Part shown: piece after piece, positions 40-20,140 of the stretch
How positions within the stretch are numbered: the first letter of the stretch is position 1
How the letters are laid out: every line of letters begins with the position of its first letter
DNA from: an uncultured archaeon
GTDB taxonomy: Archaea > Asgardarchaeota > Lokiarchaeia > Sigyniarchaeales > SOKP01
NCBI GenBank assembly: GCA_964388035.1
Contig: CAYLZE010000095.1
Coordinates: forward strand, 1 to 20,628
Length of the DNA: 20,628 nt
Direction: 5' to 3'
Made by a program: the position numbers and the translations under genes
Notes under the pieces: generated by a model
What the model was told of the DNA's origin: nothing
Seen by the model: only the letters and a program-made list of their open reading frames with translations
Databases searched by the model: none

Positions 40-966
40 CTAAAATATTTTTGAATTTCCAATCCATTTTTTTAATTTTTCATATATTTTTAGAAAAGAT
101 TGATATCCTTCTCCTTTTGTATCAAAAGGAGCTCCAGAATTCATTAATGGTAACCCTTGACAATATGAGGCAACAATATCATCATCTAAAGGAATATCTC
201 CCAAAATTGGAATGTTATTTTCTTTTAAGTCGCTTAAGAATTCTTCCTTAAATCCTAAAAGGGAGGATCTATTAATAATTGCGCGATATTCTTTACCCAT
301 TAATTTAATTAATTCTATAATTCTCATGAGATCGAGTTTCCCAAAGGGAGTAGGCTCAGTCACGGGTATCACGTAATCAGCTCTCTTTATCAAGGCTTCC
401 ACATCACAATGGGCTCCCGGAGCGGTATCTAATATGATGAGATCGTATTTATCTGACTCTTTTTCAAGAGTGGAATCCAACATTTCAATCATTTTTTCAA
501 CGATGGAAGCAGAACGAGCTTCACCCGGTTTCAATTCTCCGACAATTAGGGAAATATCATTAATAATTGTTGAATAAATCCATCCTATTGTTTTATAATC
601 CGGTTCAATGGCATCCGCTGGACAAATTTTATAGCATAACTTGCATCCCGAACATAAATTCATCATGGAGATGGGTACCATATCTTTAATATGCAACAGC
701 GCATGAGGAGCGCAATTTTCAGCACATATTCCACATTTCGTGCATTTCTCCTCGATTATTTTTGGAATGAAAAAAGGTACTGCTTGTTTATTCTCTAACT
801 TTCCTCCTAATAATAAATAGGTATTAGGATTTTCCACATCCCCATCCATTAAAAGCACCTTGTACCCTTCATTCTTGAACATCACTGCAAGGTTAACGGC
901 ACAAAGGGTCTTTCCTGTACCCCCTTTGCCTCCAGTCACGCATACAACTTTAGGATTTAAAGACAT
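40..966 (-). CDS. MinD-superfamily P-loop ATPase with inserted 2x[4Fe-4S] ferredoxin domain (COG1149-like)
   Basis: Deviant Walker A GGKGGTGKT, DGDVENPN, ferredoxin motifs CTKCGICAENC and CSGCKLCYKICP, GEARS, DTAPG and VTEPTPFG motifs typical of this family. Confidence 0.92.
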   Translation of the reverse strand: MSLNPKVVCVTGGKGGTGKTLCAVNLAVMFKNEGYKVLLMDGDVENPNTYLLLGGKLENKQAVPFFIPKIIEEKCTKCGICAENCAPHALLHIKDMVPISMMNLCSGCKLCYKICPADAIEPDYKTIGWIYSTIINDISLIVGELKPGEARSASIVEKMIEMLDSTLEKESDKYDLIILDTAPGAHCDVEALIKRADYVIPVTEPTPFGKLDLMRIIELIKLMGKEYRAIINRSSLLGFKEEFLSDLKENNIPILGDIPLDDDIVASYCQGLPLMNSGAPFDTKGEGYQSFLKIYEKLKKWIGNSKIF

Positions 967-1021: not shown

Positions 1022-1483
1022 TTAAACCTGCCTTCCTCGGCCTCCTCCCATGCCTCCTCCCATTCCTCTGCCTTGCCCCATGCCTCGACCTCCTCCCATT
1101 CCGTAATGTGCACCTACATTCGCTCCGTCAACCTTAGCCAATTTACCTTGAAGATACATCGTGATGGCTTGTTTCACGGTAACTTGCTGGTTTGGTAATT
1201 GATAAATATTAAGTTGTAAGGCATTTAACGCTTGGGCGGCATTAGGGCCTAAGAAGCCAACAATAAGGTCGCTTGCTCCGTTGTTGCCTATTATTTGAGC
1301 AGCTTGAATCCCTGCACCACCCATTGCATCTGCAGCATGATTGGGCACGGCTTTAACCGCCTTAATTTCATTATTCTCTATGGTAACAAAAGTAAAACTG
1401 CTGCATCTTCCAAATCTTTGATTGACCATTTCATTCAATCCCCCATTTCCAAAACTAGGGATTCCTACAATAATTTCAGCCAT
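1022..1483 (-). CDS. NifB/NifX-family (dinitrogenase FeMo-cofactor biosynthesis-like, COG1433) protein
   Basis: RFGRC, PN...GGAGIQAAQ and GPNA motifs; Gly/Met/Arg-rich C-terminal tail GMGGGRGMGQGRGMGGGMGGGRGR; lies upstream of the COG1149-like gene, as is usual for these families. Confidence 0.9.
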   Translation of the reverse strand: MAEIIVGIPSFGNGGLNEMVNQRFGRCSSFTFVTIENNEIKAVKAVPNHAADAMGGAGIQAAQIIGNNGASDLIVGFLGPNAAQALNALQLNIYQLPNQQVTVKQAITMYLQGKLAKVDGANVGAHYGMGGGRGMGQGRGMGGGMGGGRGRQV

Positions 1484-1689: not shown

Positions 1690-2568
1690 GTGGAAATGGG
1701 AGATGATGAAATTCCCGACATTGATTTGAAGGAAACGATTGATGAAGGGAAAAAAGAAATGATGGATGAGAGAATGGTCCAGATAGAAAAGAACATGGCA
1801 TCTATCAAGAACAAGCTTGTAATAATCAGCGGAAAAGGCGGAGTGGGGAAGACAACGGTAGCAGTAAACTTAGCCATGAGCTTGGCTAGCTTGGGATTGC
1901 GTGTCGGTATTTTGGATGTGGATATTACTGGGCCTAATGTTACTAAGATGCTGGGAGTAAGCACGGATCTAAAACCGCAAGTTGATCCCGACGCAAAAAG
2001 ATTTTATCCGGTTGTTGGTCCTCTCAATTTGAAGGTAATGGGCATGGCTTTTTTAACGATGAGCGAGGATGAACCGGTTATTTGGCGGGGTCCCATGAAG
2101 ATGGGTGCTGTGCGACAATTTTTAGGGGATGCCGTATGGGGGGAGTTGGATTATTTGATTTGCGATTTGCCTCCCGGAACCTCTGACGAGACGTTGGATA
2201 TTCTTCAACTTATTCCTGACGAAAATGTAATCGTCGTGACGACACCACAGGAAGTATCTTTAATGGATGCGCGGAAGACAATCAAAATGGCGCAAATCAT
2301 GGAGCGAAATGTATTAGGTATCCTTGAAAACATGTCTGGTTTTAACTGTCCTCATTGTGGTAAATATATTGACTTGTATCCTCCAGGAGGGGCGGAAAAG
2401 GCCTCCAAAGACTTTAATGTGAGACTGTTGGGAAAAATACCATTTGAAATTGAAGTTAGTCAGCAAGGAGATCTAGGATTACCGTTTGTAATTAAATATC
2501 CCAATAGTGCGAGCGCTAAAGCGTTTAAAGAGGTTGTTAAAAAAATTAGAGAACTATTAGGCACTTAG
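1690..2568 (+). CDS. mrp: Mrp/NBP35 (ApbC) family Fe-S cluster carrier ATPase
   Basis: SGKGGVGKTT, LDVDITGP, VIWRGPMK, WGELDYLICDLPPGTSDE, VTTPQ, ENMS and CPHC motifs; start is GTG 1690 or ATG 1696. Confidence 0.95.
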   Translation: MEMGDDEIPDIDLKETIDEGKKEMMDERMVQIEKNMASIKNKLVIISGKGGVGKTTVAVNLAMSLASLGLRVGILDVDITGPNVTKMLGVSTDLKPQVDPDAKRFYPVVGPLNLKVMGMAFLTMSEDEPVIWRGPMKMGAVRQFLGDAVWGELDYLICDLPPGTSDETLDILQLIPDENVIVVTTPQEVSLMDARKTIKMAQIMERNVLGILENMSGFNCPHCGKYIDLYPPGGAEKASKDFNVRLLGKIPFEIEVSQQGDLGLPFVIKYPNSASAKAFKEVVKKIRELLGT

Positions 2569-2631
2569 TTCTTCGGAATTTAGAAATTTCTTTCTCTTTT
2601 TTCTTATATTATTCAAGAATAGCAGACAAAT

Positions 2632-3003
2632 TTAATTTTTAGTCCAAATAGTTATTCCTTCTTTAAGGGTGCGTTTATAAAAAAAGCTGCTCTCTTCTAA
2701 TTGTTTCTTAAGCATATCTTCGGTAAGAAATAAAGGAGACCACTCAAATTCCAATGACAAATCTACTAAATATTCATAAACGGCTTCAAAGTCTTCAGGG
2801 ATGCGTTCTCGTACAACAAACAACAGATCAACATCACTTCCAAAGCGCGGTTCTTTTCTAGCAAAAGAACCATATAAGATTATCCTCTCAATTGTTGGAA
2901 TTAATTGTCCTATTTCTTTTCCATACTTATTGAGTAAATTCATCAGTTCCTTTTCTGATGGTGGATATCTGATTTTTACAGAATTGGAATACTTTTTCAC
3001 CAT
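2632..3003 (-). CDS. Minimal nucleotidyltransferase (MNT) antitoxin
   Basis: GS-x10-DxD motif (YGSFARKEPRFGSDVDL), 123 aa, C-terminal EG.. signature, overlaps the upstream HEPN gene. Confidence 0.9.
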   Translation of the reverse strand: MVKKYSNSVKIRYPPSEKELMNLLNKYGKEIGQLIPTIERIILYGSFARKEPRFGSDVDLLFVVRERIPEDFEAVYEYLVDLSLEFEWSPLFLTEDMLKKQLEESSFFYKRTLKEGITIWTKN

Positions 3004-3325
3004 TTTTTATAGCCTCCTCAGCATCATCTTTTGTATAATAATCCATGGGTGCGCCGGATGCGAAACCATTTGGATAACGAGAGGCGATATAATGTTTATC
3101 TAAACTTTTAGTTGCTTTAATGAATCTTTTCGGTACATAATACGCTTCGGGTAACTCTTTTAAAAGTTTTAATAAGGAATGTCCCCAAGCTTCAATTCTA
3201 ATTTCAAAATATAATGCCTTAATTGCTTTTTCTGCCGCTTGTTGTGCGGCTAAAACAGCCCATTCATAATGCTGTATTTTTTTGCTTTCTATTGCATGAT
3301 TGATATCTTTAAATGCTTGCTGCAA
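2927..3325 (-). CDS. HEPN domain protein (COG2250-like), probably 5'-truncated
   Basis: AQQAAEKAIKA, GHSLLKLL and HYIASRYP motifs; the only available start is a TTG directly after an in-frame TAA, and the usual first ~8 residues (including the Trp before Q-A-x-x-D) are missing. Confidence 0.85.
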   Translation of the reverse strand: MQQAFKDINHAIESKKIQHYEWAVLAAQQAAEKAIKALYFEIRIEAWGHSLLKLLKELPEAYYVPKRFIKATKSLDKHYIASRYPNGFASGAPMDYYTKDDAEEAIKNGEKVFQFCKNQISTIRKGTDEFTQ

Positions 3326-3651
3326 TTAAACAATCAAACGGATCTAATTTTTCTCCCGTACTTTCCAGAGTTTGATAGATGTTTGCTGCTTTTTGTGCTG
3401 CTTTTTCATCCAATGAAAACACATATAAATTATGAATTAGTTTCTCGATATTTGTTCTTTCAATTTCTAACAATTCGTTATTTATTTTATTCTTTCCAAA
3501 TTTCATTTTAAAAAATCCCATATATAACTCAAAAATAGAAAGGTGTTGTAATAGCAAATTTTTCCTCAGGAGAAAAGCTTTTAGTAAAAACTTTTAGCGA
3601 ATATTTTTCATGCAGAATATCAATACAAATATCAGTATCAAAAAATATCAT
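3309..3651 (-). pseudogene. vapC: VapC/PIN-domain toxin pseudogene (frameshifted and 3'-truncated)
   Basis: ATG 3651 overlaps the vapB stop (ATGA) and reads MIFFDTDICIDILH...FAITTP. One extra T at 3539-3541 shifts the frame to a TGA at 3531-3529. The +1 frame continues SIFELYMG...AANIYQTLESTGEKLDPFDCLIAASI* and lacks the final T-x-N/D motif. Confidence 0.85.
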
Positions 3652-3887
3652 TTTGAATCTACCCGAGTTCTGATTGATTCTCTCATCTCTCTACTCGCTT
3701 GCCTAAACTCGTTAGTAAATTCGTCTGGTAGATCTTTTGAAAGACCAAAACATTGTGAGATTTCAGAAAAATTGCTCTGGTTTTCTAATAATCTGGCTAT
3801 TACATCCGAATAACTTTCATATTTCCTTTTTTGCTTTTTCAAGCGATCATATATCTCTTTTCTAATAGAAATTTGTTTCGATGTCAG
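3648..3887 (-). CDS. vapB: VapB-type antitoxin (archaeal DUF217-like)
   Basis: Extending the listed ORF upstream gives (CTG)TSKQISIRKEIYDRLKKQKRKYESYSDVIARLL, matching the K-T-I-x-I...Y..L...K...ES(F/Y)SDVI.RL pattern; translationally coupled to vapC; start codon uncertain. Confidence 0.8.
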   Translation of the reverse strand: MTSKQISIRKEIYDRLKKQKRKYESYSDVIARLLENQSNFSEISQCFGLSKDLPDEFTNEFRQASREMRESIRTRVDSK

Positions 3888-4240
3888 TTGATTTTTTATG
3901 ATTCTATTCTATTTGTAATATATCACTATATTGCTCATATATAGAATAACAAATAATATTTTTAATTTTATTCTTTCAAAATTATTTTTTATAAACATTA
4001 TAATCTATTTTTTTCTTAAAATTATATAATTTTACTCCTCATATATTCAATTCTTATTTTTTAAAATCCTCTATTTTTTTTTAAGCAATAATCTTGACTA
4101 TCTTAAATGCGTAGAGGCATGTCTAAAATTCTAGGGATTAAAAATATAGAGGGTGATTCATTATTATTTTTTTGAATTTAACTAACTTTATCTTAAAAAC
4201 TTGAATTCCTAATTTAAAGAGAATTAGAGCGAAATTTATT

Positions 4241-5263
4241 ATGACTAAAAAAAAAGTATATATTGTAAAAGATTTAGTAATTGATGATCAATATGGCATC
4301 ATTGACTCAAAAGCTACAATACGTGAAGCTGCTAAAAAGATGAAAGAGATTGGCGTTCCTGATCTCGTTGTCATGGAAAATGGAAAGAAAGTTTTAGGCG
4401 TTATTGGAGACTTTGATATCGTACATAAAGTAGCCGAAGGAACTGATTGCAATAAGGTGAGCGTGATAGATGCGATGTACGTGATAGAACCAGTTCATGT
4501 GAACACGACCGTTCAAGAAGCTTTTAATAGGATGCAAAGATTGCAAGTGAATGTTGTCCCAGTGGTGGAGAATGGAGAATTAAAAGGAGTATGTACCATT
4601 CAAGATTGTTGGAGCTACATTCCTGATGAAACCTTCGATGATATTGGGCTCATTCCCGTGGAGAACACCAAATTTGTAGAATTCTGGTTTGCAAGTATTT
4701 GTTCTATAATTGCCTTGATCTTCGGCGTTATTTTTCCCTTAATAGGAATCTATGGATATTTTTATGCTGATGAGACCAATGTGTTAGGTGCTTTAGGTAT
4801 CATTGATATCAGAATAGGCACAACGGCTGTGGGATTCAGTGCAATAGAGTTTTTCCTATTTGAGGCGAGAGGGCCAGAATTACTAATTCCCTATTCGAGC
4901 ATCGTGAGCACGAGCGGGGTAATATGGATCTTTGTCGATTTATTTAGCATCGTTTTAGTGATTCTGGGCATACTCTCCTTATTTACCATTATTTACGCTA
5001 GCTATTCTGATACAAGACGATTATTAGCGGGAAGAAGAATTCGTGTCTTGATTCCGGGGCTATTTATAGTATTCATGATCCTAGAATGGATAATTTTTGG
5101 AATTGCGCTTAGCTTATCCTTACCTTCCATACCCATCTCCATTGACGTTCTCGGATTACTTTTTTCAATAATTTCCATTGTTTTCGTTATCTTCGCAGTC
5201 TTCAGAGATTATTTCTTTCGAGGAAAAGAATCGAGTGTAAATAAAATAGAGGGGGCAGATTAG
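4241..5263 (+). CDS. CBS-pair domain membrane protein (N-terminal CBS tandem + ~4 TM helices)
   Basis: ATIREAAKKMKEIGVPDLVV...GVIGDFDI and TTVQEAFNRMQRLQVNVVPVVENGELKGVCTIQD are two CBS repeats; the C-terminal half has four or five long hydrophobic segments. Confidence 0.8.
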   Translation: MTKKKVYIVKDLVIDDQYGIIDSKATIREAAKKMKEIGVPDLVVMENGKKVLGVIGDFDIVHKVAEGTDCNKVSVIDAMYVIEPVHVNTTVQEAFNRMQRLQVNVVPVVENGELKGVCTIQDCWSYIPDETFDDIGLIPVENTKFVEFWFASICSIIALIFGVIFPLIGIYGYFYADETNVLGALGIIDIRIGTTAVGFSAIEFFLFEARGPELLIPYSSIVSTSGVIWIFVDLFSIVLVILGILSLFTIIYASYSDTRRLLAGRRIRVLIPGLFIVFMILEWIIFGIALSLSLPSIPISIDVLGLLFSIISIVFVIFAVFRDYFFRGKESSVNKIEGAD

Positions 5264-5265
5264 TC

Positions 5266-6795
5266 ATGCCACGCGGAGGCGGTGGAGGTTCTCGTGGGGG
5301 CGGAGGCGGTTCCCGAGGAGGTGGAGGAGGATTTAGGGGATCTAGTTTTGGAGGATCTGGTGGGTTTCGAGGGGGTGGTTATAGGGGCGGTCCCACGGGC
5401 TTTAGAATGGGAAGCTCTCATCCTGGGGGCACGCCTTTTGGACGCACAGGAGCAAATAGAGTCGTGAATCGAGGCCCTAGTGGCCCTTACCGGCATAACT
5501 ATTATCGCCCTCATCGTAGTTATTATTGGTATGGATATCGTCCTTATTGGTGGTATGGTCGTCCTTGGTATTGGCGATGGTGGTATTCCCCCTATTGGTC
5601 AGGATGGTACAATCGTCCGTGGTATTATTCTCCTGTATTGGCCGTTGGATCAATAATCTTTATTATTTTGGTCGCAGTCATTTTCATTCCCTTAATCGGG
5701 GCATTATTACTTATTCCAACAGGAGGGGGCAATCAAGTTAATTATCGCTCCACAGAAACCATCTATTACAATGAGTATTATTATGAGCATGAGCAAATTA
5801 ATGCGGGAAGAGACATTACCTTTTCCGTTCAATCATCTCCCAGTGTAATCACTTTTGCTATTTGGGATCATCCATTTGATCAGTTGCCCAAAACTACGGT
5901 GAAGGGACATTACGACGAAAAATTCACGTTGGAGAATAATTATTATGAATATTATTCCATCTATCTAAATCAAGAATCATCGATAAAATATCAGTTTACA
6001 TCTTCTAAACCAGTAGATTTTTTCATTGCAGATGGAGACCAGCTATATGATTGGAATAATGGAGAAAATCCAGATTTCTATTATCACGTGGATAATGTGA
6101 ATTCCGGAAGAGGAACCTACATTACTGAAGATTCAATGGATTATTATCTTGTCTGGTATAACGGAAAAAGTTCAGAATCTGCCATAAGCATTAATGTTGA
6201 TTATACAGCAAAAGATGTCCTGGATTTCTCGGTTACTAATTTTCACGTGGAAGCCGTGACTTCTGTTCCCGAACAAACCTTCACTGTTCCAAATGATGGA
6301 GATTGGTATTTCTTCATTTACTTTAATCCCATGAAGTCTCCTGAAGAATCCACTGACGTTACTTTTGATGTAACCTATGAAACTGGATTTTCAACACAAC
6401 AATGGTTTAATCCCGTGGTGATTGTCCTCCTCATTATTGTAACTGTCGTCGTAATAGGTGCTGTTGTAGTACGAAAAAATCAAAAAAAAATTCTGCAAGA
6501 GAAAGGGTCAGAACCGATATCAACAACAAGCCCTTATAAGACAACCCAAGAGAAGCAAGAAACACAAAAGAAAGAAGGAGTTTCGGAACTTAGATGCTTG
6601 AGATGTGGTGCAAAATTACCGCCAAATGCGAGTTTCTGTACAAATTGTGGGGGAAAAATTGAAGGGCGAGAAATTGCAAAACCAGATGTTTCAACCCCTC
6701 CTGATTCCCCTACCTGTTCTTATTGCGGAAATAAACTGGATAAAGGATCGCAATATTGTTCTTATTGCGGCGTTAAAATCCGACAAAAAAATTAA
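5266..6795 (+). CDS. Two-TM membrane protein: RGG/Gly-rich and Tyr/Trp/Arg/Pro-rich N-terminus, beta-rich extracytoplasmic region, C-terminal double zinc ribbon
   Basis: aa1-60 RGG/Gly; aa75-123 aromatic-rich; TM at ~124-150 and ~383-402; four CxxC pairs (CLRC, CTNC, CSYC, CSYC); ATG 2 nt after the upstream stop, with a purine-rich GAGGGGG upstream. Confidence 0.85.
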   Translation: MPRGGGGGSRGGGGGSRGGGGGFRGSSFGGSGGFRGGGYRGGPTGFRMGSSHPGGTPFGRTGANRVVNRGPSGPYRHNYYRPHRSYYWYGYRPYWWYGRPWYWRWWYSPYWSGWYNRPWYYSPVLAVGSIIFIILVAVIFIPLIGALLLIPTGGGNQVNYRSTETIYYNEYYYEHEQINAGRDITFSVQSSPSVITFAIWDHPFDQLPKTTVKGHYDEKFTLENNYYEYYSIYLNQESSIKYQFTSSKPVDFFIADGDQLYDWNNGENPDFYYHVDNVNSGRGTYITEDSMDYYLVWYNGKSSESAISINVDYTAKDVLDFSVTNFHVEAVTSVPEQTFTVPNDGDWYFFIYFNPMKSPEESTDVTFDVTYETGFSTQQWFNPVVIVLLIIVTVVVIGAVVVRKNQKKILQEKGSEPISTTSPYKTTQEKQETQKKEGVSELRCLRCGAKLPPNASFCTNCGGKIEGREIAKPDVSTPPDSPTCSYCGNKLDKGSQYCSYCGVKIRQKN

Positions 6796-11606: not shown

Positions 11607-12668
11607 TCAATCTATCATGGATTCTCTTTTCTCAAAAGAGTGTTTAGCTTTTTTCTCATATATACAGCGCCACACGAAGTTTTCCAAGATATTTTCACCG
11701 ATCATTCTGGTTCTTGCCACAATTCTTTCATCAAAGAGATTGGGATTGAAATAATAACCATGGTGTGTTTCGGGGTGAAATTGGATGGAATAAATAGGTC
11801 TATTAACATGACGCATGTACTGAATTATTTTATAATCCTTTGTTTTAGAGGTTGAGATAATGTTAAAATTTTCCATTAGTTTTGAATCATTAGGATGGAT
11901 GAAATCCCGATGATGCGTATTGACGACAATGTTTTTTTTGTTAATAATTTCATCCGTTTCATTTAACTTGATAAAAATAATATTTCCATCTAACCCAGGA
12001 ATTCTCATCCTACATATTTGAGCACCGAATGCATATGCGATGAGCTGATGTCCAAAACATATTCCAAGAATGGGAGGAGTACCTTGATTTAAAATTAAAT
12101 TGATTTCGGGTTCGAATTTCTTTTTTAATTTATAATTAAAGTAGAAATCAGATACATTATAACTCGATCCAGACAATATATAGCCCGAGCTATGTTCTAA
12201 ATTTTTGTCATTCAGATCACTAAAGTGAATAGTCTCAACTGTTATGTCCGCAATCATTGAATTTAAGATAGTTTCTAATCGAATGATTCTATCTGTGGGA
12301 AATCCGATGGGGTAATTATCAATAATAATTATCTTTTTTTTCTTTTCTTCGGATTTTTCTGTTTGTTCTTCGCCAAATTGTTCTATTTCTTCAACGTGGT
12401 ATTCTATTTCTTCAATTATTTGCTCTTTTATTTCAATTTCTTCTCGAATAGAAAAATGCACAAAAACTTCTTGCTCTTCATTAACCTTTTCTGCTTTTTC
12501 ATTGTCATTTTCTTTTTGATCATGATCTTCTCCATTAGCATTATTTAAAGGTTCCAACTCTTTCTCATTTGTTCGCTCTGATAAGACTTTATGATTTTCG
12601 TTGGAATTTTTCAAGTCATTTTCTTGTTCGTTTAGGTCATCCTTTTCTTCTTTCATTTCTAAATTCAA
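11607..12668 (-). CDS. Class I glutamine amidotransferase / gamma-glutamyl hydrolase-like protein with a ~110-aa acidic N-terminal extension
   Basis: IIIIDNY, ILSGS, PILGICFGHQLIA (nucleophile Cys), HRD and IQFHPE (His-Glu) motifs; start is TTG 12668 or ATG 12656. Confidence 0.88.
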   Translation of the reverse strand: MNLEMKEEKDDLNEQENDLKNSNENHKVLSERTNEKELEPLNNANGEDHDQKENDNEKAEKVNEEQEVFVHFSIREEIEIKEQIIEEIEYHVEEIEQFGEEQTEKSEEKKKKIIIIDNYPIGFPTDRIIRLETILNSMIADITVETIHFSDLNDKNLEHSSGYILSGSSYNVSDFYFNYKLKKKFEPEINLILNQGTPPILGICFGHQLIAYAFGAQICRMRIPGLDGNIIFIKLNETDEIINKKNIVVNTHHRDFIHPNDSKLMENFNIISTSKTKDYKIIQYMRHVNRPIYSIQFHPETHHGYYFNPNLFDERIVARTRMIGENILENFVWRCIYEKKAKHSFEKRESMID

Positions 12669-12709
12669 ATTATCTTTAATATAGTACTTTTTTTATATGT
12701 ATATTAACC

Positions 12710-14170
12710 TTAAAATCCAAAGTTTCCAAATAAGCGATCTAAAAGATTTTCATTTTCCGTATGCACTCTAAGTACCCGGTCATTTTCATTTAAAGGAATG
12801 CTAATATTCTGAACGTTAAGCAAATTCACGATGCTAATGTCATTAAATTTAGTTACTAATCCCTCCTTTTCTTCATAAGCTAATTCATATTTTGCTGATA
12901 AGGAACCTTCAATTTGAGAATTGCCTCGCACTTTATATCGATTACCGCTTTGATCTGATATAGTTCTTGAATCCTTTAATTCAACTAATGCATAATTTCG
13001 TCCTTGTTGCCGTAATTTTTCTATTTTTCTTGTTCGATAGTTAATATTTAATTCTTTTTGTTTAATTTCGGTCTTCAGTTTAGGTATGGGCAGATTTTTG
13101 ATTTGCAGGTTTAGATATTTCAAGTATGGAGAAATTTCCTCAATCCATCGGGTTACACTTTTTTCAAGCGTTTCTTCTCCCTCCCTTCTTTTTAACTTTA
13201 AATCATGTCCAAGGGCAATGGCATTATTCAAATTAATTTCGTGATAAGGATCCTTCTCTATTTCACCAATCGCATTTAAATATATCGCATGTAAACTCGA
13301 AGCACAGCATAAGTGAGTTATATCTAGTAGATCTTGAATATCCTCTTGTACATCTATGACACGTATTTCCACCCGATTTCTTGAAGGCAATTCGTCTTTA
13401 TCCTCTCCGATATTAGTAAAAGGGCCTCGCGGAGTAATATCTACCAATCTGTCGCCACGGGAATTAGTAATGACTTTTTTTGAAAATTCATCCTCTCCCG
13501 CACCTATTTTAAGCTGATAACGCATGCGACCATAATAGCGCATCGGAATCAGCGCAGGACGATTTTCGGGAATTTCTATTGTTGCAAATCCACTTAGTTT
13601 TAGAACGGTACTATTTGCACACCTATTACTTGCAATATTATTGATACTTCCTTTATATATTGGAGAATTTGCTGTAGTACCTATGATTTCAGGTAGATAA
13701 TTCCATAAGTAATTTTGAACTGCTTTTAACTCTTCCGCTCTCATTAAACTTCCTTTTTTCTGAACGGATACATTAATATGCGTTCCTACAATGGGATGGG
13801 GATCGGACTGAATCGGATGGAGACTTTGGGCCAGAATTTTTGTTCCATATTTTTTAGCGGCATGAATTAATAATTGACGACCTGCTTTTACTGCATCTTC
13901 TATCATATCGGGTTTTAATGGTAAAGTAACATATTCAATTTGACTCGGTGATGGTTCTGCATCCAAACTCCAGATTTTAAATCGCAAGGAATCTAAAAGA
14001 TCTTGATTTTTTTCGATTAATTCTGCAGCTTTCATCATGAGCTCATTAGCGGCGTCCACTAAGGTACCATCGTCATTAATAATCAGCATTTCTTCTTCTA
14101 TGCCACAGAGAACTTGATATTCTTCGAAATTGTCTTTTTCATTATTTTTTGTTTTTTGATGAAATAGCAT
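12710..14170 (-). CDS. Glutamate-cysteine ligase family 2 (GCS2/YbdK-like) carboxylate-amine ligase with C-terminal extension
   Basis: GIEEEMLI, SQIEYVT, SLHP, GTHINVS, LPEIIGTTANSP, SNR, DITPR and VEIRVID match YbdK-family motifs in order; ~130 extra C-terminal residues. Confidence 0.82.
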   Translation of the reverse strand: MLFHQKTKNNEKDNFEEYQVLCGIEEEMLIINDDGTLVDAANELMMKAAELIEKNQDLLDSLRFKIWSLDAEPSPSQIEYVTLPLKPDMIEDAVKAGRQLLIHAAKKYGTKILAQSLHPIQSDPHPIVGTHINVSVQKKGSLMRAEELKAVQNYLWNYLPEIIGTTANSPIYKGSINNIASNRCANSTVLKLSGFATIEIPENRPALIPMRYYGRMRYQLKIGAGEDEFSKKVITNSRGDRLVDITPRGPFTNIGEDKDELPSRNRVEIRVIDVQEDIQDLLDITHLCCASSLHAIYLNAIGEIEKDPYHEINLNNAIALGHDLKLKRREGEETLEKSVTRWIEEISPYLKYLNLQIKNLPIPKLKTEIKQKELNINYRTRKIEKLRQQGRNYALVELKDSRTISDQSGNRYKVRGNSQIEGSLSAKYELAYEEKEGLVTKFNDISIVNLLNVQNISIPLNENDRVLRVHTENENLLDRLFGNFGF

Positions 14171-14672: not shown

Positions 14673-16394
14673 ATGTTATATCCGCAAAGAAATAAGTTTC
14701 GACAGTTTATAGATTTATCTGGTTTTTGGGACTTTAAATTTGATCCCGATGATATCGGCAATATTGAACAGTGGAGTCAAAATCTTGATAATAGTCAGCC
14801 CATCGCTGTTCCTGCTAGTTGGAATGACCAATTTTCTGATCATCGCGATTATATGGGGCCAGCATGGTATAAAACTAAATTTGATATTCCTTGGGGGTGG
14901 ATGGGAAGTCAAATCTTTTTACGATTTGGTTCTGTGAATTATTACGCGGATGCTTGGCTGAATGGCAAAAAGCTTGGCTCCCATGAAGGGGGGCATCTTC
15001 CATTCGAATTTGATGTGACATCATATCTTAAAGAATTCAATAACCAACTTGTTGTACGCGTGGATAATAGGCTTTCAAAATTTCAAGTTCCACCTAGTGG
15101 GGGTCCTCAAAATTATCCCAGAACTAATTATGATTTTTTTCCATATTGTGGAATTCAGCGACCTGTCCTCTTATATTCCATTCCAAAAGGCGGAATTAAA
15201 GATGTATTTGTCACTCCCTCCATAGAGAATGAGAAAGGCATTATTAAGGTCAAGATTGAGGTAATGAGTGATGAATTTGAAACGGTTATCTTTACTCTTG
15301 AAGGATTTGGAATGGAAATTAAGGAAACGATCATGATGGAGGGTAATATCGGTGAAGCTATTATGAGTGTACCTAATGCTAAATTTTGGACACCCGATGA
15401 ACCTAATTTATATGATTTAACAATAACTCTTTTGAAAAACGAGGAAATTCTAGACTCCTACACTATTAAGGTTGGAATTCGCACTTTCACTACGGAGGGA
15501 GATAAATTATTGTTAAATGGAAAACCAATTTACTTGCGTGGATTTGGACGTCATGAGGATTTTCCAGTGGTTGGAAAAGGGTATCTTCCTGCTTTAATAA
15601 TTAAGGATTATTCATTATTGAAATGGATAGGGGCCAATTCTTTCCGTACTTCGCATTATCCTTATTCCGAACAGATGATGGATTTGGCAGATAAATTGGG
15701 TGTTTTAGTAATTGATGAGACTCCCGCGGTTGGTTTAACATTCGATAATACTGTAATAGATCAACATCTCGCCATGTGTGAACAATACGTTGAAGAGCTT
15801 GTCAAAAGAGATAGAAATCATCCCAGCGTAATAATGTGGAGCCTAGCTAATGAACCTCATAGAAGTGGGAAAGCAAAAGATTTCTTTAAAACATTATATG
15901 ATAAAGTAAAAAAAATGGATTCTACTAGACCAATTACCGTTGTAAGTATGATCGGGACCAGTGAAAAAGCTTTCGACTTCTGCGAGGTGGTCTGCATGAA
16001 TCGATACAATGGATGGTATACTGAGTCCGGTGAAATAGATAAAGGAATAGAGTATCTTTCTTCTGAATTGGATAAAATTCATGCAAAGTATCCAAAACCC
16101 ATGATTTTATCAGAATTTGGAACGGATACCCTTCCGGGGGCTCATTCACAACCCTCTGAAATGTTTAGCGAAGAATATCAGGTGGAGTTTATCAAGAAAT
16201 ACATTAGAATGATTAGAGATAAAAACTACATTCAAGGAGAACATATCTGGAACCTGTGCGATTTTAAAACCCCTCAAGGAATAATTAGAGTAAAAGGATA
16301 TAATTATAAAGGGGTCTTTACAAGAGATCGCAAGCCAAAAATGGCCGCCCATCTCCTTAGAAAAATTTGGAAAGGAGAAGATATCTTCTCTTGA
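14673..16394 (+). CDS. uidA: Beta-glucuronidase, glycoside hydrolase family 2
   Basis: VPASWND, HEGGHLPFEFDVT, DFFPYCGIQRPV, GFGRHED, GANSFRTSHYPY, WSLANEP (acid/base), SEFG (nucleophile) and the GUS-specific N-x-K motif NYKGVFTRDRKPKMAAH. Confidence 0.93.
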   Translation: MLYPQRNKFRQFIDLSGFWDFKFDPDDIGNIEQWSQNLDNSQPIAVPASWNDQFSDHRDYMGPAWYKTKFDIPWGWMGSQIFLRFGSVNYYADAWLNGKKLGSHEGGHLPFEFDVTSYLKEFNNQLVVRVDNRLSKFQVPPSGGPQNYPRTNYDFFPYCGIQRPVLLYSIPKGGIKDVFVTPSIENEKGIIKVKIEVMSDEFETVIFTLEGFGMEIKETIMMEGNIGEAIMSVPNAKFWTPDEPNLYDLTITLLKNEEILDSYTIKVGIRTFTTEGDKLLLNGKPIYLRGFGRHEDFPVVGKGYLPALIIKDYSLLKWIGANSFRTSHYPYSEQMMDLADKLGVLVIDETPAVGLTFDNTVIDQHLAMCEQYVEELVKRDRNHPSVIMWSLANEPHRSGKAKDFFKTLYDKVKKMDSTRPITVVSMIGTSEKAFDFCEVVCMNRYNGWYTESGEIDKGIEYLSSELDKIHAKYPKPMILSEFGTDTLPGAHSQPSEMFSEEYQVEFIKKYIRMIRDKNYIQGEHIWNLCDFKTPQGIIRVKGYNYKGVFTRDRKPKMAAHLLRKIWKGEDIFS

Positions 16395-16644: not shown

Positions 16645-17146
16645 TCTTTTTTTATCACTTTCAGAAAATGTTAATATCTCTGTATAAGTAGGAATTAGGT
16701 TTTTTTATTTGTCTATAATTTTAATAAATTGATTCTTTTCAAGAATTGGAATCTCTCGTGAAAATCTCGAGGGAGTCTTCCTCTCTTACCAGAGCGAAAG
16801 GTTATAATTGTAAAGTGTTTTTATGTGGGATCATAAATTGAAATTGACTGCTTGTTTTTTAAAAAAAATAAAATGACCAAGATTTATGATCTCTTTCCGA
16901 CTTTTTATATGTTTTCACGAGTTTTATTATCACTTTTACAATTATTTATAAATCAGTTCTCTTATTATTATAATCAAAATTCAAATTCTATCGTGCAAAA
17001 AAAAATTTCATTTTAAATAATTATAAGATTGATTGTCTCCTTCATGAAGAATTGAAATATAGGCCTTCAGATGAGAAACAATATGGTATTTGATTTGAGT
17101 CTTAAATGGCAAAATCTTTAATTAATTTATTCTCCTTTTATAGGAG

Positions 17147-17440
17147 ATGCTCTCACGTGATAAGATGGAAATTATTAATTACTTAGGCAACAAACTCGCA
17201 GAAAAAATAAGGATTAGTCCTCCTGCAGCTAGAGGGTTATTAAAGCTAGCAATTAAAGACGAATTAGGTCCTTTTGTGCCTATAGAACAAATAAGGTTTA
17301 ATGATTTAAAAAAAGTAATTTTGAATTCCCTCAGAGCAAGGTTAATTAAATTAGAAATTATTGATCCTAATCCCATAATCGAATTTTTAAATGATGAATT
17401 AACACGAAATCAATCCCTAATAACAATGGAGATAGTTTAA
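17147..17440 (+). CDS. Small helical hypothetical protein (91-97 aa)
   Basis: Clean ORF co-oriented with the downstream 7TM gene; ISPPAARGLLKLAIKDELGP core; true start may be ATG 17165, about 23 nt downstream of TTTTATA. Confidence 0.75.
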   Translation: MLSRDKMEIINYLGNKLAEKIRISPPAARGLLKLAIKDELGPFVPIEQIRFNDLKKVILNSLRARLIKLEIIDPNPIIEFLNDELTRNQSLITMEIV

Positions 17441-17552
17441 TTGAAGAATAGAGAAAGAGATTTTATTGATTTCTATACCCAAAAAATAATAATCTTTTCA
17501 AATAAAAAACAATACTTATATCTAATATCAAAAAACAAGAAGTGAAACCTAA

Positions 17553-18347
17553 ATGATTCAAACTTTAATGTTTTCCATTTTTATTATTATGTTTTTTCTC
17601 TTCATAATTACATTATCAATTGTCGCTGCTTTTTTACTTCTGAGAGCAATAAAAATTAAAATGTGGAATTTAATTTATGGAGGTACTGCTTTTTTATTAA
17701 TTCCGATCGGGTTTATCGGCAACTTTTTATTCCAATTGGGTACTGTATTTGAAGAAATATTTGTTTCTTCAGGATTCGTGCTCATTACAGTATTTACTAA
17801 TTTAACATTTCATCGAGAGAGAGAAAATATAGCCTGTATTGTATTGACGATAAATATATTGCTAGCCATTAGCATGATTTTTCTGAAAGTGATTACTTAT
17901 TTAATTCTTAAACAAATTACTCCATTTTTGTATTATCTTCGTATTGCGATTGATATTATCTTTTCGTTTCTTACATTAGGATGGATTAGTTTTTCTTCCT
18001 TAAATGCATATAATTTCCTAAAACACGAAAATATTGAACCTTGGATTAAGATGAGATATAAAGTTATTGGCATTGTTTCATTAGTATTAAGTTTTCATGC
18101 AGTGCCTCAAATCATGATTCCATGGAATGTTTCTATCAATGATTTCAATTCCATTTATGTTTTACTAAGCTACATGATAATAATTGTGGAAGCAGTTATA
18201 TTTTCTTTTGGCTATTGTATTGCTTGGATAATGCCAGAAAGACTTAAGGCATATTTTAATAGATCGTTTACTCCTTCTGAAGAGACATCATTTACTAAAG
18301 AAGAAGAATTAATACAACACATAAAAAATCAATTAAAAAATAATTAA
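17553..18347 (+). CDS. Seven-transmembrane hypothetical membrane protein
   Basis: Seven hydrophobic segments counted by eye, followed by amphipathic WIMPERLKAYFNR and an acidic helical tail EEELIQHIKNQL. Confidence 0.8.
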   Translation: MIQTLMFSIFIIMFFLFIITLSIVAAFLLLRAIKIKMWNLIYGGTAFLLIPIGFIGNFLFQLGTVFEEIFVSSGFVLITVFTNLTFHRERENIACIVLTINILLAISMIFLKVITYLILKQITPFLYYLRIAIDIIFSFLTLGWISFSSLNAYNFLKHENIEPWIKMRYKVIGIVSLVLSFHAVPQIMIPWNVSINDFNSIYVLLSYMIIIVEAVIFSFGYCIAWIMPERLKAYFNRSFTPSEETSFTKEEELIQHIKNQLKNN

Positions 18348-18592
18348 ATTAATTCCCTTGATTTTGATTAGATAAAAAAATCTATTTAGCTACTTCACTA
18401 GGGACTTATAATATTTCTCTCGAATAACGTCTAAATCCTTATAAATCAAGAGCAAATTCATTCTCAATTTCTAAAAAATTTTTTCAAAATCCCCCATTTA
18501 ATGTTTAAGCATAAATTTATTATCTAAACATTATTCTTAGATTTTAAGTTCATGGATTACATATTTCATTTAATAATGAGCTTTCTAATTGA

Positions 18593-20140
18593 ATGAATAA
18601 TTTAAAAGATAAAAGTAATAAAATTTACTTTGAAAATTTATATAATTCATTTTTGATGCATTTCCCTTACAAATTTATGATTCTTACAATTGAAGGGACC
18701 TTAATTTATATATCGCAGAAAGCGCAAGAATTTTTTGAGCTAACTCTTCAAAAGCAGTTTTATGGAAAAAATATTCTTCAATCAAATGTAATAAAAAATC
18801 CTGAGATTTTTGCAAAAATTATCGAACGAGTTTTAGCTGGTGAAAACATAAATCAAGAAGAGAATTGCTTGATTAAAAATAATGGGACGGAAGTAGTTTG
18901 TGAACTCATAGCTCAACTCATAAAAGCAACTAATGAAGCACCCAAATCCATTTTAATCTATTTAAGAGACTTGACGCCGCAAAAAAATATGGAAAATCAA
19001 TTAAAAAAGACTAATGAAGAATTACTTAAATCTAAACAGATGTTTCAGCTTGCAATGGATAATATTCCCCAATTTATCTATTGGAAGGATGTTAATTCGG
19101 TATATTTGGGTTGCAATAAAAATTTTGCACGCGTGGCGGGAATTAATAATCCTGAAAATATTATCGGCAAAAAGGATCGTGATTTAGCATGGTCTCCCCT
19201 GGAGGCCGAAACATTTTCTGAAATTGATCAGCTAGTAATCGAATCAAATAAACCAGAATATCATGTTATCGATTCACAATCTCAAGCCGATGGAAAGAAA
19301 GCATGGTTAGATATAAATAGAATACCTTTACACGATTCCCAAGGGAATGTTATAGGTGTCTTAGGAACTTTTCAAGATATTACAGATAGTATAATCGCTA
19401 AGAAAGATTTAGAGAAATCTAAAGAGAAATATCGTAAAGCATATAATAATGCTGAATTTTATAAAGATATTTTTGCTCATGATATCAGCAACATCCTACA
19501 ATGTATTCGCACTTCATTAGATTTATGTCGTTATCATATGAATGATTTGAGACAATACTCTGAAATTGATAGTTTATATCATATCATACTTGATCAAATT
19601 AATCGTGGTACTACTCTTATTTCAAACGTGAAGAAGTTCTCTTCTATAGAAAATCTCATGAATGTTGTGGAAAAGGTAGATATTATGAAAATTATAAAGA
19701 GTTCCGTTGAAAATTTGCTCGACGGTTATCCTCAACACAAAATTGCTATTAGCTTAAAACCCTTGGATAAATTAATAACTGTAAAAGCAAATTATCTTTT
19801 AAAGGATGCTTTTGATAATATATTATCTAATGCAGTAAAACATAACATCCAATCTAAAATAGAAATAGAAATCAAATTTAGTATGATTCAAGAAGAAAAG
19901 ACTGAATATTATAAAATAGAAATATTAGATAATGGAATTGGAATAAGTGATCTACAAAAAAGTGAATTATTTTTAGAAGAAAGTAAAGAGAATATGAGTT
20001 TTAATAGAATAGGCATTGGATTAATTCTTGTTAAGCAAATAATTGAAAGTTATGAAGGAAAAATATGGGTAGAAAATCGCATAGAAGGGGATTATACTCA
20101 AGGAAGTAATTTCATCATTCTTTTACCCGTTTTTAAATAG
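18593..20140 (+). CDS. Soluble PAS-PAS sensor histidine kinase
   Basis: Two PAS/PAC regions (second: MDNIPQFIYWKDVNSVYLGCN...IPLHDSQGNVIGVLGTFQDIT), H-box FAHDISNILQ, N-box NILSNAVKHN, G1 DNGIGI, G2 GIGLILVKQII, terminal GKIWVENR...GSNFIILLP; no TM segments. Confidence 0.95.
   Translation: MNNLKDKSNKIYFENLYNSFLMHFPYKFMILTIEGTLIYISQKAQEFFELTLQKQFYGKNILQSNVIKNPEIFAKIIERVLAGENINQEENCLIKNNGTEVVCELIAQLIKATNEAPKSILIYLRDLTPQKNMENQLKKTNEELLKSKQMFQLAMDNIPQFIYWKDVNSVYLGCNKNFARVAGINNPENIIGKKDRDLAWSPLEAETFSEIDQLVIESNKPEYHVIDSQSQADGKKAWLDINRIPLHDSQGNVIGVLGTFQDITDSIIAKKDLEKSKEKYRKAYNNAEFYKDIFAHDISNILQCIRTSLDLCRYHMNDLRQYSEIDSLYHIILDQINRGTTLISNVKKFSSIENLMNVVEKVDIMKIIKSSVENLLDGYPQHKIAISLKPLDKLITVKANYLLKDAFDNILSNAVKHNIQSKIEIEIKFSMIQEEKTEYYKIEILDNGIGISDLQKSELFLEESKENMSFNRIGIGLILVKQIIESYEGKIWVENRIEGDYTQGSNFIILLPVFK

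Follow-up and report, generated by a model that had tools for sequence, protein, structure and literature searches.

In plants, pollen mitosis II is described as requiring the APD1-4 proteins, which are transmembrane RING E3 ligases with unknown substrates (Luo et al. 2012, as cited in PMC6118397 and PMC13210498). They have been called 'orphan' RING ligases of the plant endomembrane system, with a luminal domain to which no fold or function has been assigned (PMC13210498). Here we describe a relative of these proteins from an uncultured archaeon of the Lokiarchaeia (Sigyniarchaeales, SOKP01). The stretch of DNA analysed, referred to hereafter as the window, comprises 20,628 nucleotides (nt) of contig CAYLZE010000095.1 (assembly GCA_964388035.1), and the gene in question is a single open reading frame (ORF) of 509 codons plus a stop, whose product is labelled P0001 (Table 1). 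The domain family is already known from Pfam and from plant genetics. No description of the family was found in the literature on APD, DUF4792, DUF4793, PF16040, PF16041 or the GOLD domain together with Asgard archaea. As far as that literature goes, the Asgard branch, its tails (zinc ribbons instead of the RING at one end, Arg-Gly-Gly (RGG) repeats at the other), the assignment to the GOLD fold and the CBS partner gene are new.

Like members of the APD/DUF4793 family, P0001 has two transmembrane (TM) helices with a beta domain between them, and its cytosolic C-terminus bears a Cys-rich zinc module. It differs from them in having two sequential zinc ribbons and no RING, in matching APD1-4_N below the Pfam cut-off and the APD1-4_M model not at all, in its long conserved RGG/aromatic tail, and in its obligatory partner gene, which encodes a CBS pair and four TM helices (CBS/4-TM). 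The setting differs as well, being the archaeal plasma membrane for P0001 and eukaryotic endomembranes for APD. Overall we favour, with a probability of about 0.8, the reading that P0001 is a conserved APD-like, two-pass membrane protein with a double zinc ribbon, paired with a CBS gene, that may work as a receptor-like scaffold.

The topology was examined in an AF2 model of aa 120-400 (model residue 1 is aa 120), built on 25 orthologues, with a mean predicted local distance difference test (pLDDT) score of 85.9 and values mostly above 90 in the ectodomain. Two model helices flank the extracytoplasmic beta region, and Arg/Lys-rich segments lie on both cytosolic flanks of the helices. P0001 spans the membrane twice and both of its termini are cytoplasmic; a linker joins the second helix (TM2) to the zinc ribbons. 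An initial annotation made from the DNA letters had described this order of parts (TM helix, extracytoplasmic beta region of ~225 aa, TM helix, linker, Cys/Zn module), and the ORF, the AF2 model and Pfam show both the order and its coordinates to be correct.

An APD-type ectodomain with a GOLD-fold core

The ectodomain of P0001 and the luminal APD1-4_N/APD1-4_M region of the eukaryotic APD/DUF4793 family, to which plant APD1-4 belong, are homologues. APD1-4_N (PF16040) was the sole Pfam family to match it (aa 205-258, 19.5-21.9 bits, below the cut-off of 27). Of the 26 orthologues, 10 matched the same model at E <= 0.01 (best E 4e-6); orthologues from genus g12 exceeded the cut-off at 28.1-28.7 bits, and the group B paralogues described below reached 32-37 bits. 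When 400 Asgard genomes were searched in six frames with PF16040, matches fell only at loci of the Asgard APD-like family, with 11 genomes over the cut-off, and none of the 14 control genomes was matched. The P0001 gene was the single match in its own genome. APD1-4_M (PF16041) was matched neither by P0001 at E <= 10 nor by any of the 26 orthologues at E <= 0.01.

A eukaryotic homologue was recovered directly. Among the 50 proteins returned by a single-sequence phmmer scan of 1.84 billion representatives was P0165 (library-wide E 5.7e-5), a EukProt protein of the amoebozoan Pellita catalonica that scores above the cut-off with APD1-4_N (32.3 bits) as well as with APD1-4_M (43.5 bits). A profile of 25 Asgard ectodomains aligned with P0165 in hhalign at 97.8% probability (E 6.6e-13, 261 columns), and BLASTP of P0001 against P0165 gave E 2e-8 over 206 aa. 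With the soluble ectodomains only, BLASTP scored 35.4 bits compared to a mean of 14.9 (standard deviation 2.3, maximum 23.5) for 200 shuffles, that is, about 9 standard deviations above. The BLASTP and hhalign alignments continue through the PF16041 region of P0165, aa 230-328. Homology to a bona fide member of the family was therefore found across the luminal region by phmmer, hhalign and ectodomain BLASTP. P0165 (MPRHGGG at its start, WYGRP ahead of the first TM helix, TM1) also resembles P0001 in its Gly/Arg-rich N-terminus starting with MPR. No protein other than P0165 came back when it was itself used as query in a word-indexed search, and the five proteins from a mixed-alignment search included no new eukaryote.

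Predicted structures pointed to the same family. In a shape search of the ESM Atlas, the nearest clusters past P0001's own family (rows 2-3) were Streptophyta APD1-4_N/M clusters, which aligned over 168-176 residues (model residues 45-247) with template-modelling (TM) scores of 0.47-0.50. In one of these clusters 98% of the members carry zf-C3HC4_3, a C3HC4 RING. Generic GOLD-like prokaryotic clusters aligned over ~105-115 residues only. The APD/DUF4793 family thus supplies both the sequence homologue of the ectodomain and its nearest non-self predicted structures. Three of these lines of evidence share one eukaryotic sequence and two share one Pfam model, and they are not fully independent.

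The initial annotation had noticed a resemblance to APD1-4 in several motifs and had assigned them to DUF4793. The resemblance is real, but the segment YYEYY...IKYQF belongs to APD1-4_N (formerly DUF4792), and only DYYLVWYN aligns to the APD1-4_M (DUF4793) region.

An exhaustive structure comparison (VIA-align) placed five GOLD domains on top, all over model residues ~93-200: p24beta1 (5azw_B, Z 13.3, root mean square deviation 1.5, 87 residues aligned), p24gamma2 (5gu5_A, Z 13.3), TMED1 (7rrm_C, Z 12.8), SPF (1o6u_A, Z 11.8) and p24delta1 (5azx_A, Z 11.5). The GOLD domain of ACBD3 (5lz1) followed at Z 8.7, and Foldseek concurred with a GOLD core (TM-scores of 0.77-0.85 by target). The core has the GOLD beta-sandwich fold, which it has in common with the domains of p24/TMED, SEC14-like SPF and ACBD3. 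The strands on either side of it (model residues 38-81 and 207-254) pair with one another to build a further sandwich, which resembles the ecto-sandwiches of SIDT1/2 (Z 9.4, model residues 38-253). Since these strands pair in this way, the APD-type luminal region is, in the predicted structure, a GOLD-fold sandwich nested in a second beta-sandwich.

P0001 is like p24 in holding a GOLD domain on the non-cytosolic side of a membrane protein. However, p24 proteins consist of a GOLD domain, a coiled coil, a single TM helix and a short COP-binding tail, whereas P0001 has its GOLD unit nested in a second sandwich, two TM helices and long tails, and has neither the coiled coil nor the COPI/COPII tail motifs. 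Pfam EMP24_GP25L (PF01105) found no match on P0001, which does not show the p24/TMED architecture. PPC and collagen-binding domains were weaker look-alikes (Z ~9). Between APD on the one hand and GOLD/emp24 or PPC on the other, which the initial annotation had proposed to compare, the ectodomain is APD by sequence and GOLD by fold, with PPC behind.

These same comparisons bear on a simpler explanation, that the ectodomain is a generic surface sandwich of GOLD/PPC type on a common zinc-ribbon anchor and that its likeness to APD is convergent or compositional. GOLD-like sandwiches are indeed common in archaea (rows 4-8 of the Atlas search include Bathyarchaeota and Thermoplasmatota clusters), other Asgard families match the GOLD core only, the PPC and collagen-binding domains do match, and P0001 scores below the Pfam cut-off. 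Yet the sequence matches are specific and repeated and reach past the GOLD core to cover ~200 residues; plant APD clusters align over their 168-176 residues compared to ~110 for generic sandwiches; and the topology and the MPR-GGG and WYGRP features of the N-terminus are common to P0001 and the eukaryotic protein. The generic explanation is in our view highly improbable and already largely refuted. The initial annotation would have given way had profile and structure searches shown no APD kinship beyond a widespread beta-sandwich; Pfam, phmmer, hhalign and the plant APD clusters all showed more than that.

Distribution, paralogues and evolutionary position

A word-indexed search gave ~158 homologue clusters, and every named one is Asgard (labelled Promethearchaeota/Lokiarchaeia, Hermodarchaeota or Thorarchaeota). 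The family is narrow, since the full scan of 1.84 billion representatives yielded no more than the 50 proteins mentioned above. Among 400 genomes of the phylum, full-length matches were present in four families (f1, 94 of 134 genomes; f2, 1 of 1; f3, 12 of 14; f16, 21 of 22), usually as one copy per genome; the other Asgard families gave partial matches to the central GOLD/beta core only. In public databases the orthologues are annotated as 'zinc ribbon domain-containing protein' or 'hypothetical', and the orthologue in the cultured Lokiarchaeum ossiferum, NEF87_001693, likewise bears only the label 'zinc-ribbon domain-containing' or 'hypothetical'.

P0001 and its orthologues form what we term group A. 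A second set of paralogues, group B (L024-L029 and L023:8001-9344), occurs in families f3 and f15, with examples in Lokiarchaeum ossiferum-type genomes (L024, L025, L028), and one 6.0-Mb single-contig genome holds both a group B gene and the L. ossiferum group A orthologue. Like P0001, these proteins and P0163 have an MPR-GGG/Arg-rich tail, a TM helix, an APD-like ectodomain, a second TM helix and a zinc ribbon, and the two groups are homologous (97.5%). Group B proteins differ from P0001 in being shorter (365-447 aa, with exceptions), in passing or nearly passing the PF16040 cut-off (2 of 6 pass, with 32.3 and 34.1 bits, and there are weak PF16041 matches), and in ending in one long zinc ribbon (CxxC-x19-CxxC); they have no CBS neighbour. 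P0163, an archaeal relative encoded on a prokaryotic contig, also without a CBS neighbour, scored 35.9 bits with PF16040 and E 5e-14 in BLASTP against the eukaryotic P0165. With the query used, no group B gene turned up in the genome that encodes P0001. The members of a divergent 'group C' have a single ribbon.

In a maximum-likelihood tree of 40 ectodomains, group B together with the eukaryotic sequence was split from groups A, C and D with SH-aLRT support of 100. Because the eukaryotic sequence stands beside the other Asgard paralogue group, P0001 is probably a sister-group relative of the APD scaffold and not its closest Asgard counterpart; group A is sister to group B, and group B appears nearer to the eukaryotic proteins. 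The initial annotation had called P0001 a possible archaeal counterpart of APD1-4 and had suggested a phylogeny. The relationship to APD stands, by profile and structure searches and by the tree, but the status of direct counterpart probably does not, the eukaryotic sequence grouping with B and not with A. An archaeal root for the eukaryotic APD family is likely.

This root would be reversed or made recent if the gene had been transferred from eukaryotes to Asgard archaea, or recently in the other direction, and had not been inherited by eukaryotes from an archaeal ancestor. The full-length family is patchy in the phylum and confined to few families, most others showing GOLD-core matches only, and one eukaryotic sequence entered the analysis, as a transfer would allow. 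On the other hand, the Asgard sequences fall into three or more divergent groups (A, B and C among them), at 25-35% identity and in differing contexts, and among eukaryotes the family is represented in plants, in arthropods and in an amoebozoan. Deep divergence in Asgard archaea and broad spread among eukaryotes suggest that the families are old on both sides, and we regard transfer as very unlikely.

A more far-reaching proposal is that groups A and B represent the archaeal stock of a pan-eukaryotic APD/DUF4793 family, an unlisted eukaryotic signature protein. A GOLD-type receptor would have been carried into the endomembranes, its tail would have been upgraded to a RING repeatedly (in plants and, independently, in one Asgard genus), and the zinc-ribbon tail would already have docked ubiquitin-like or ESCRT machinery. 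This full scenario is speculative and rather unlikely; if true, surface recognition would have been linked to membrane-protein sorting through the zinc-ribbon tail.

Relatives with other domain combinations were also seen. P0106, P0090, P0101, P0104, P0119 and P0122 join an APD-like ectodomain straight to a WD40-type beta-propeller and have just one TM helix, at the C-terminus. A role of the WD40 unit as a swapped cytosolic module was rejected, because the propeller of P0106 comes immediately after the APD-like domain and is itself followed by no more than one TM helix, which makes the fusion extracellular. Other predicted surface proteins thus use the ectodomain as a module too. P0075 has an N-terminal zinc ribbon and TPR repeats where the RGG tail would be.

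Several points weigh against the favoured reading of P0001 as an APD-like scaffold. P0001 itself remains under the APD1-4_N cut-off (19.5-23.3 versus 27 bits) and without an APD1-4_M match, the TM helices contribute part of the hhalign score, and the TM-scores to the plant clusters are ~0.5 with predicted models on both sides. The alignments include a single eukaryotic sequence, P0165, which is transcriptome-derived, and the link to RING-bearing APDs runs through Pfam models and Atlas clusters, not through a direct alignment with plant APD1-4. The tree was a quick one, unrooted, with long branches and that one eukaryote. Some complete genomes of the same family have no copy (0 of 4 in genus g6, 0 of 10 in g10), so the gene is not essential. 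Finally, the functional part of the reading, that is, ligand binding, tail partners and CBS coupling, is an inference.

Zinc ribbons in the place of a RING

No RING model gave a significant match to P0001 (best E 1.8, 8.8 bits), which does not have the RING finger of plant APD1-4 sensu stricto. Its eight Cys are arranged as two CxxC-x10-CxxC ribbons that follow one another at a distance of 22 residues, with no cross-brace. All eight are invariant in 26 of 26 aligned sequences, and the inter-ribbon linker is kept (EGR...TTP), with G467, R468, T477 and P478 invariant; so are R403, Q406 and K407 at or just past the end of TM2. Pfam DZR (PF12773) matched the whole of P0001 with 42.4 bits and its tail with 54.3 bits (cut-off 27.3), consistent with a double ribbon, and was present in all 26 orthologues; NCBIfam profiles gave nothing meaningful on P0001. 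The C-terminal tail is in this respect that of a clear DZR protein, as in prokaryotic DZR membrane proteins, but the label covers only ~60 of the 509 residues and is silent on the ectodomain, the N-terminal tail and the partner gene. The protein ends six residues past the last Cys of the second ribbon, and the 540 nt that follow the ORF showed neither a RING remnant nor a RING-like ORF. The proposal of the initial annotation that zinc ribbons lie where the RING of APD would be was borne out, the topology being the same.

It had also been suggested that Asgard homologues ending in RING domains be sought, and the search gave a mixed answer. Longer orthologues from genus g49 of family f16 (L016-L020, 553-563 aa; e.g. 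L016:5778-7469:+) carry an extra Cys/His finger past the double ribbon, with the spacing C-x2-C-x4-C-x2-C-x11-C-x2-C. In 4 of 5 of these orthologues the finger matched zf-RING_4 with 18.0-19.9 bits, under the cut-off of 27. These scores suggest a RING-like finger in Asgard orthologues, in one genus and below the cut-off. On the eukaryotic side a RING is not universal either: the amoebozoan P0165 and a 339-member arthropod DUF4793 cluster show none. Since many eukaryotic members have no RING, ligase activity is not a defining property of the scaffold.

P0001 could nonetheless be a membrane-anchored ligase or adaptor of an Asgard ubiquitin-like system, in which the double ribbon (or the finger of g49) would recruit an E2 or ubiquitin as APD RING ligases do. 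Its scaffold is common to the APD ligases by hhalign and the Atlas search, the genome holds three UQ_con E2-like genes, most of the g49 fingers do match zf-RING_4, and the Cys and the inter-ribbon linker are invariant. However, P0001 is RING-less, its ribbons are sequential and lack a cross-brace, no RING remnant lies downstream, the three E2-like genes are elsewhere in the genome and unlinked to the P0001 gene, the arthropod clusters and the amoebozoan protein lack a RING too, and the g49 finger is sub-threshold and restricted to its genus. Because it has no RING, P0001 itself is probably not an E3 ligase. Its link to ubiquitin-like conjugation, given the E2-like genes elsewhere, is possible but unsupported, and a role as ligase or adaptor seems quite unlikely.

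The CBS/4-TM partner and its surroundings

Directly upstream of the P0001 gene lies the gene for P0002, whose stop codon is 2 nt ahead of the ATG of P0001. The AF2 model of P0002 matched CBS pairs at Z 16.6 and has four long helices; the 4-TM part matched no Pfam family, and CBS matches filled its structure list. Within the last codons of the CBS gene, 10 nt before the ATG of P0001, is a Shine-Dalgarno-like GAGGGGG, consistent with co-transcription and coupled translation. In each of the 22 orthologous loci compared (families f1, f2, f3 and f16), a CBS/4-TM homologue was the next gene upstream, in the same orientation, while the other neighbours varied and none was conserved. The two genes are therefore a conserved pair, and on this genomic evidence their products almost certainly work together. 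A predicted complex of the CBS/4-TM protein with the TM1-ectodomain-TM2 part of P0001 scored 0.00, which is evidence neither way.

The N-terminal tail of P0001 begins with MPRGGG and continues with RGG/FRGG repeats, the motifs PFGRTG and GPYRH, and a Trp/Tyr/Arg-rich juxtamembrane end, ...RPWYYSP. Although supposedly disordered, it holds short invariant motifs (PFGRTG, GPYRH, RPW...SP) in the 26 aligned orthologues, the invariant residues being P57, G59, R60, T61, G62, R65, G73, P74, H77, Y102, W106, P109, R117, P118, W119 and P123. The invariant motifs of this tail and of the zinc-ribbon tail argue for specific cytosolic partners. In the ectodomain the best-conserved segments are membrane-proximal: NYRSTETLYFNEYWYE past TM1 and WYFF.YFDP ahead of TM2.

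GOLD domains are protein- or cargo-binding modules in p24 cargo receptors and ACBD3. We tentatively propose that the pair forms a receptor-like membrane module, a function that is possible rather than probable. The GOLD-type ectodomain would bind a ligand or partner at the cell surface, and its conserved membrane-proximal segments would suit contact with the extracellular loop of the partner protein. The CBS pair may read adenine-nucleotide status and couple the module to it, and the RGG/aromatic tail and the double zinc ribbon may recruit cytosolic output partners.

Alternatively, P0002 could be the active component, a transporter or channel, and P0001 its accessory subunit, an extracellular 'beta-subunit'. 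The strict conservation of the pair, with its 2-nt spacer and internal Shine-Dalgarno-like site, would fit such a complex, as would the membrane-proximal position of the best-conserved ectodomain parts; CBS pairs regulate MgtE, CNNM/CorB and ClC-type transporters, and such structures were among the CBS matches. But no family matched the 4-TM part, transporters usually need more than four helices, and the group B paralogues and the eukaryotic proteins have no CBS partner. An accessory role in transport is doubtful.

The window otherwise contains housekeeping genes (Fe-S carrier ATPases, a pyridoxal phosphate-dependent (PLP) decarboxylase, a major facilitator superfamily (MFS) transporter, an M20 peptidase and a glycoside hydrolase family 2 (GH2) glycosidase). 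A Fe-S-related cluster at 40-966 (-), 1022-1483 (-) and 1690-2568 (+) comprises a MinD/ParA-type ATPase into which a 2x[4Fe-4S] ferredoxin segment is inserted, a Nitro_FeMo-Co (NifX/NifB-like) protein and an Mrp/NUBPL-type ATPase. The region 2600-4240 is low in G+C (0.29 for 3001-4000) and holds only short overlapping ORFs on both strands, and the ~680 nt ahead of the CBS gene have no ORF of 80 aa or more. At 11607-14170 (-), a 486-aa protein with a marginal match to GCS2 (glutamate-cysteine ligase 2) adjoins a class-I glutamine amidotransferase-like gene; the two possibly constitute an unusual pair that forms amide bonds. This Asgard genome also encodes, at 14673-16394 (+), a full-length GH2 glycosidase (beta-galactosidase/glucuronidase type), and downstream of it, at 17000-20140, are very AT-rich ORFs. 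No tRNA or Rfam family was found in the window.

Table 1. Features of the P0001 gene and its partner gene in the window.
Feature	Position	Strand	Evidence
Partner gene P0002, 340 aa, N-terminal CBS pair and four TM helices	4241..5263	+	Pfam CBS, AF2
Shine-Dalgarno-like GAGGGGG, 10 nt upstream of ATG, inside CBS gene end	5249..5255	+	Read from sequence
Whole ORF, Asgard APD-like two-pass membrane protein P0001, group A	5266..6795	+	ORF; ~158 homologue clusters; typically one copy per genome
Cytosolic N-terminal tail, aa 1-122	5266..5631	+	Alignment of orthologues
TM1, ~aa 123-150	5632..5715	+	Helix, AF2 model residues 4-29
Extracytoplasmic all-beta ectodomain, ~aa 155-375 (~225 aa)	5728..6390	+	AF2, structure comparison
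APD1-4_N (PF16040) match, aa 205-258	5878..6039	+	19.5-23.3 bits versus cut-off 27
GOLD-fold core, ~aa 212-319	5899..6222	+	Structure comparison
TM2, ~aa 383-403, then basic RKNQKK	6412..6474	+	Helix, AF2 model residues 264-280
Zinc ribbon 1, C444-x2-C447-x10-C458-x2-C461	6595..6648	+	Pfam Zn_Ribbon_1, DZR
Zinc ribbon 2, C484-x2-C487-x10-C498-x2-C501	6715..6768	+	Pfam DZR

For the eukaryotic family, these results supply the APD luminal domain with a GOLD-fold core, that is, with a structural hypothesis, and its clear relatives among Asgard archaea, one of them in the cultured Lokiarchaeum ossiferum, make an archaeal root likely. A candidate is thereby added to the short list of membrane-trafficking-related proteins common to Asgard archaea and eukaryotes. 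For the archaea themselves, the pairing with the CBS/4-TM gene constitutes an undescribed two-gene membrane module that can be tested in culture.

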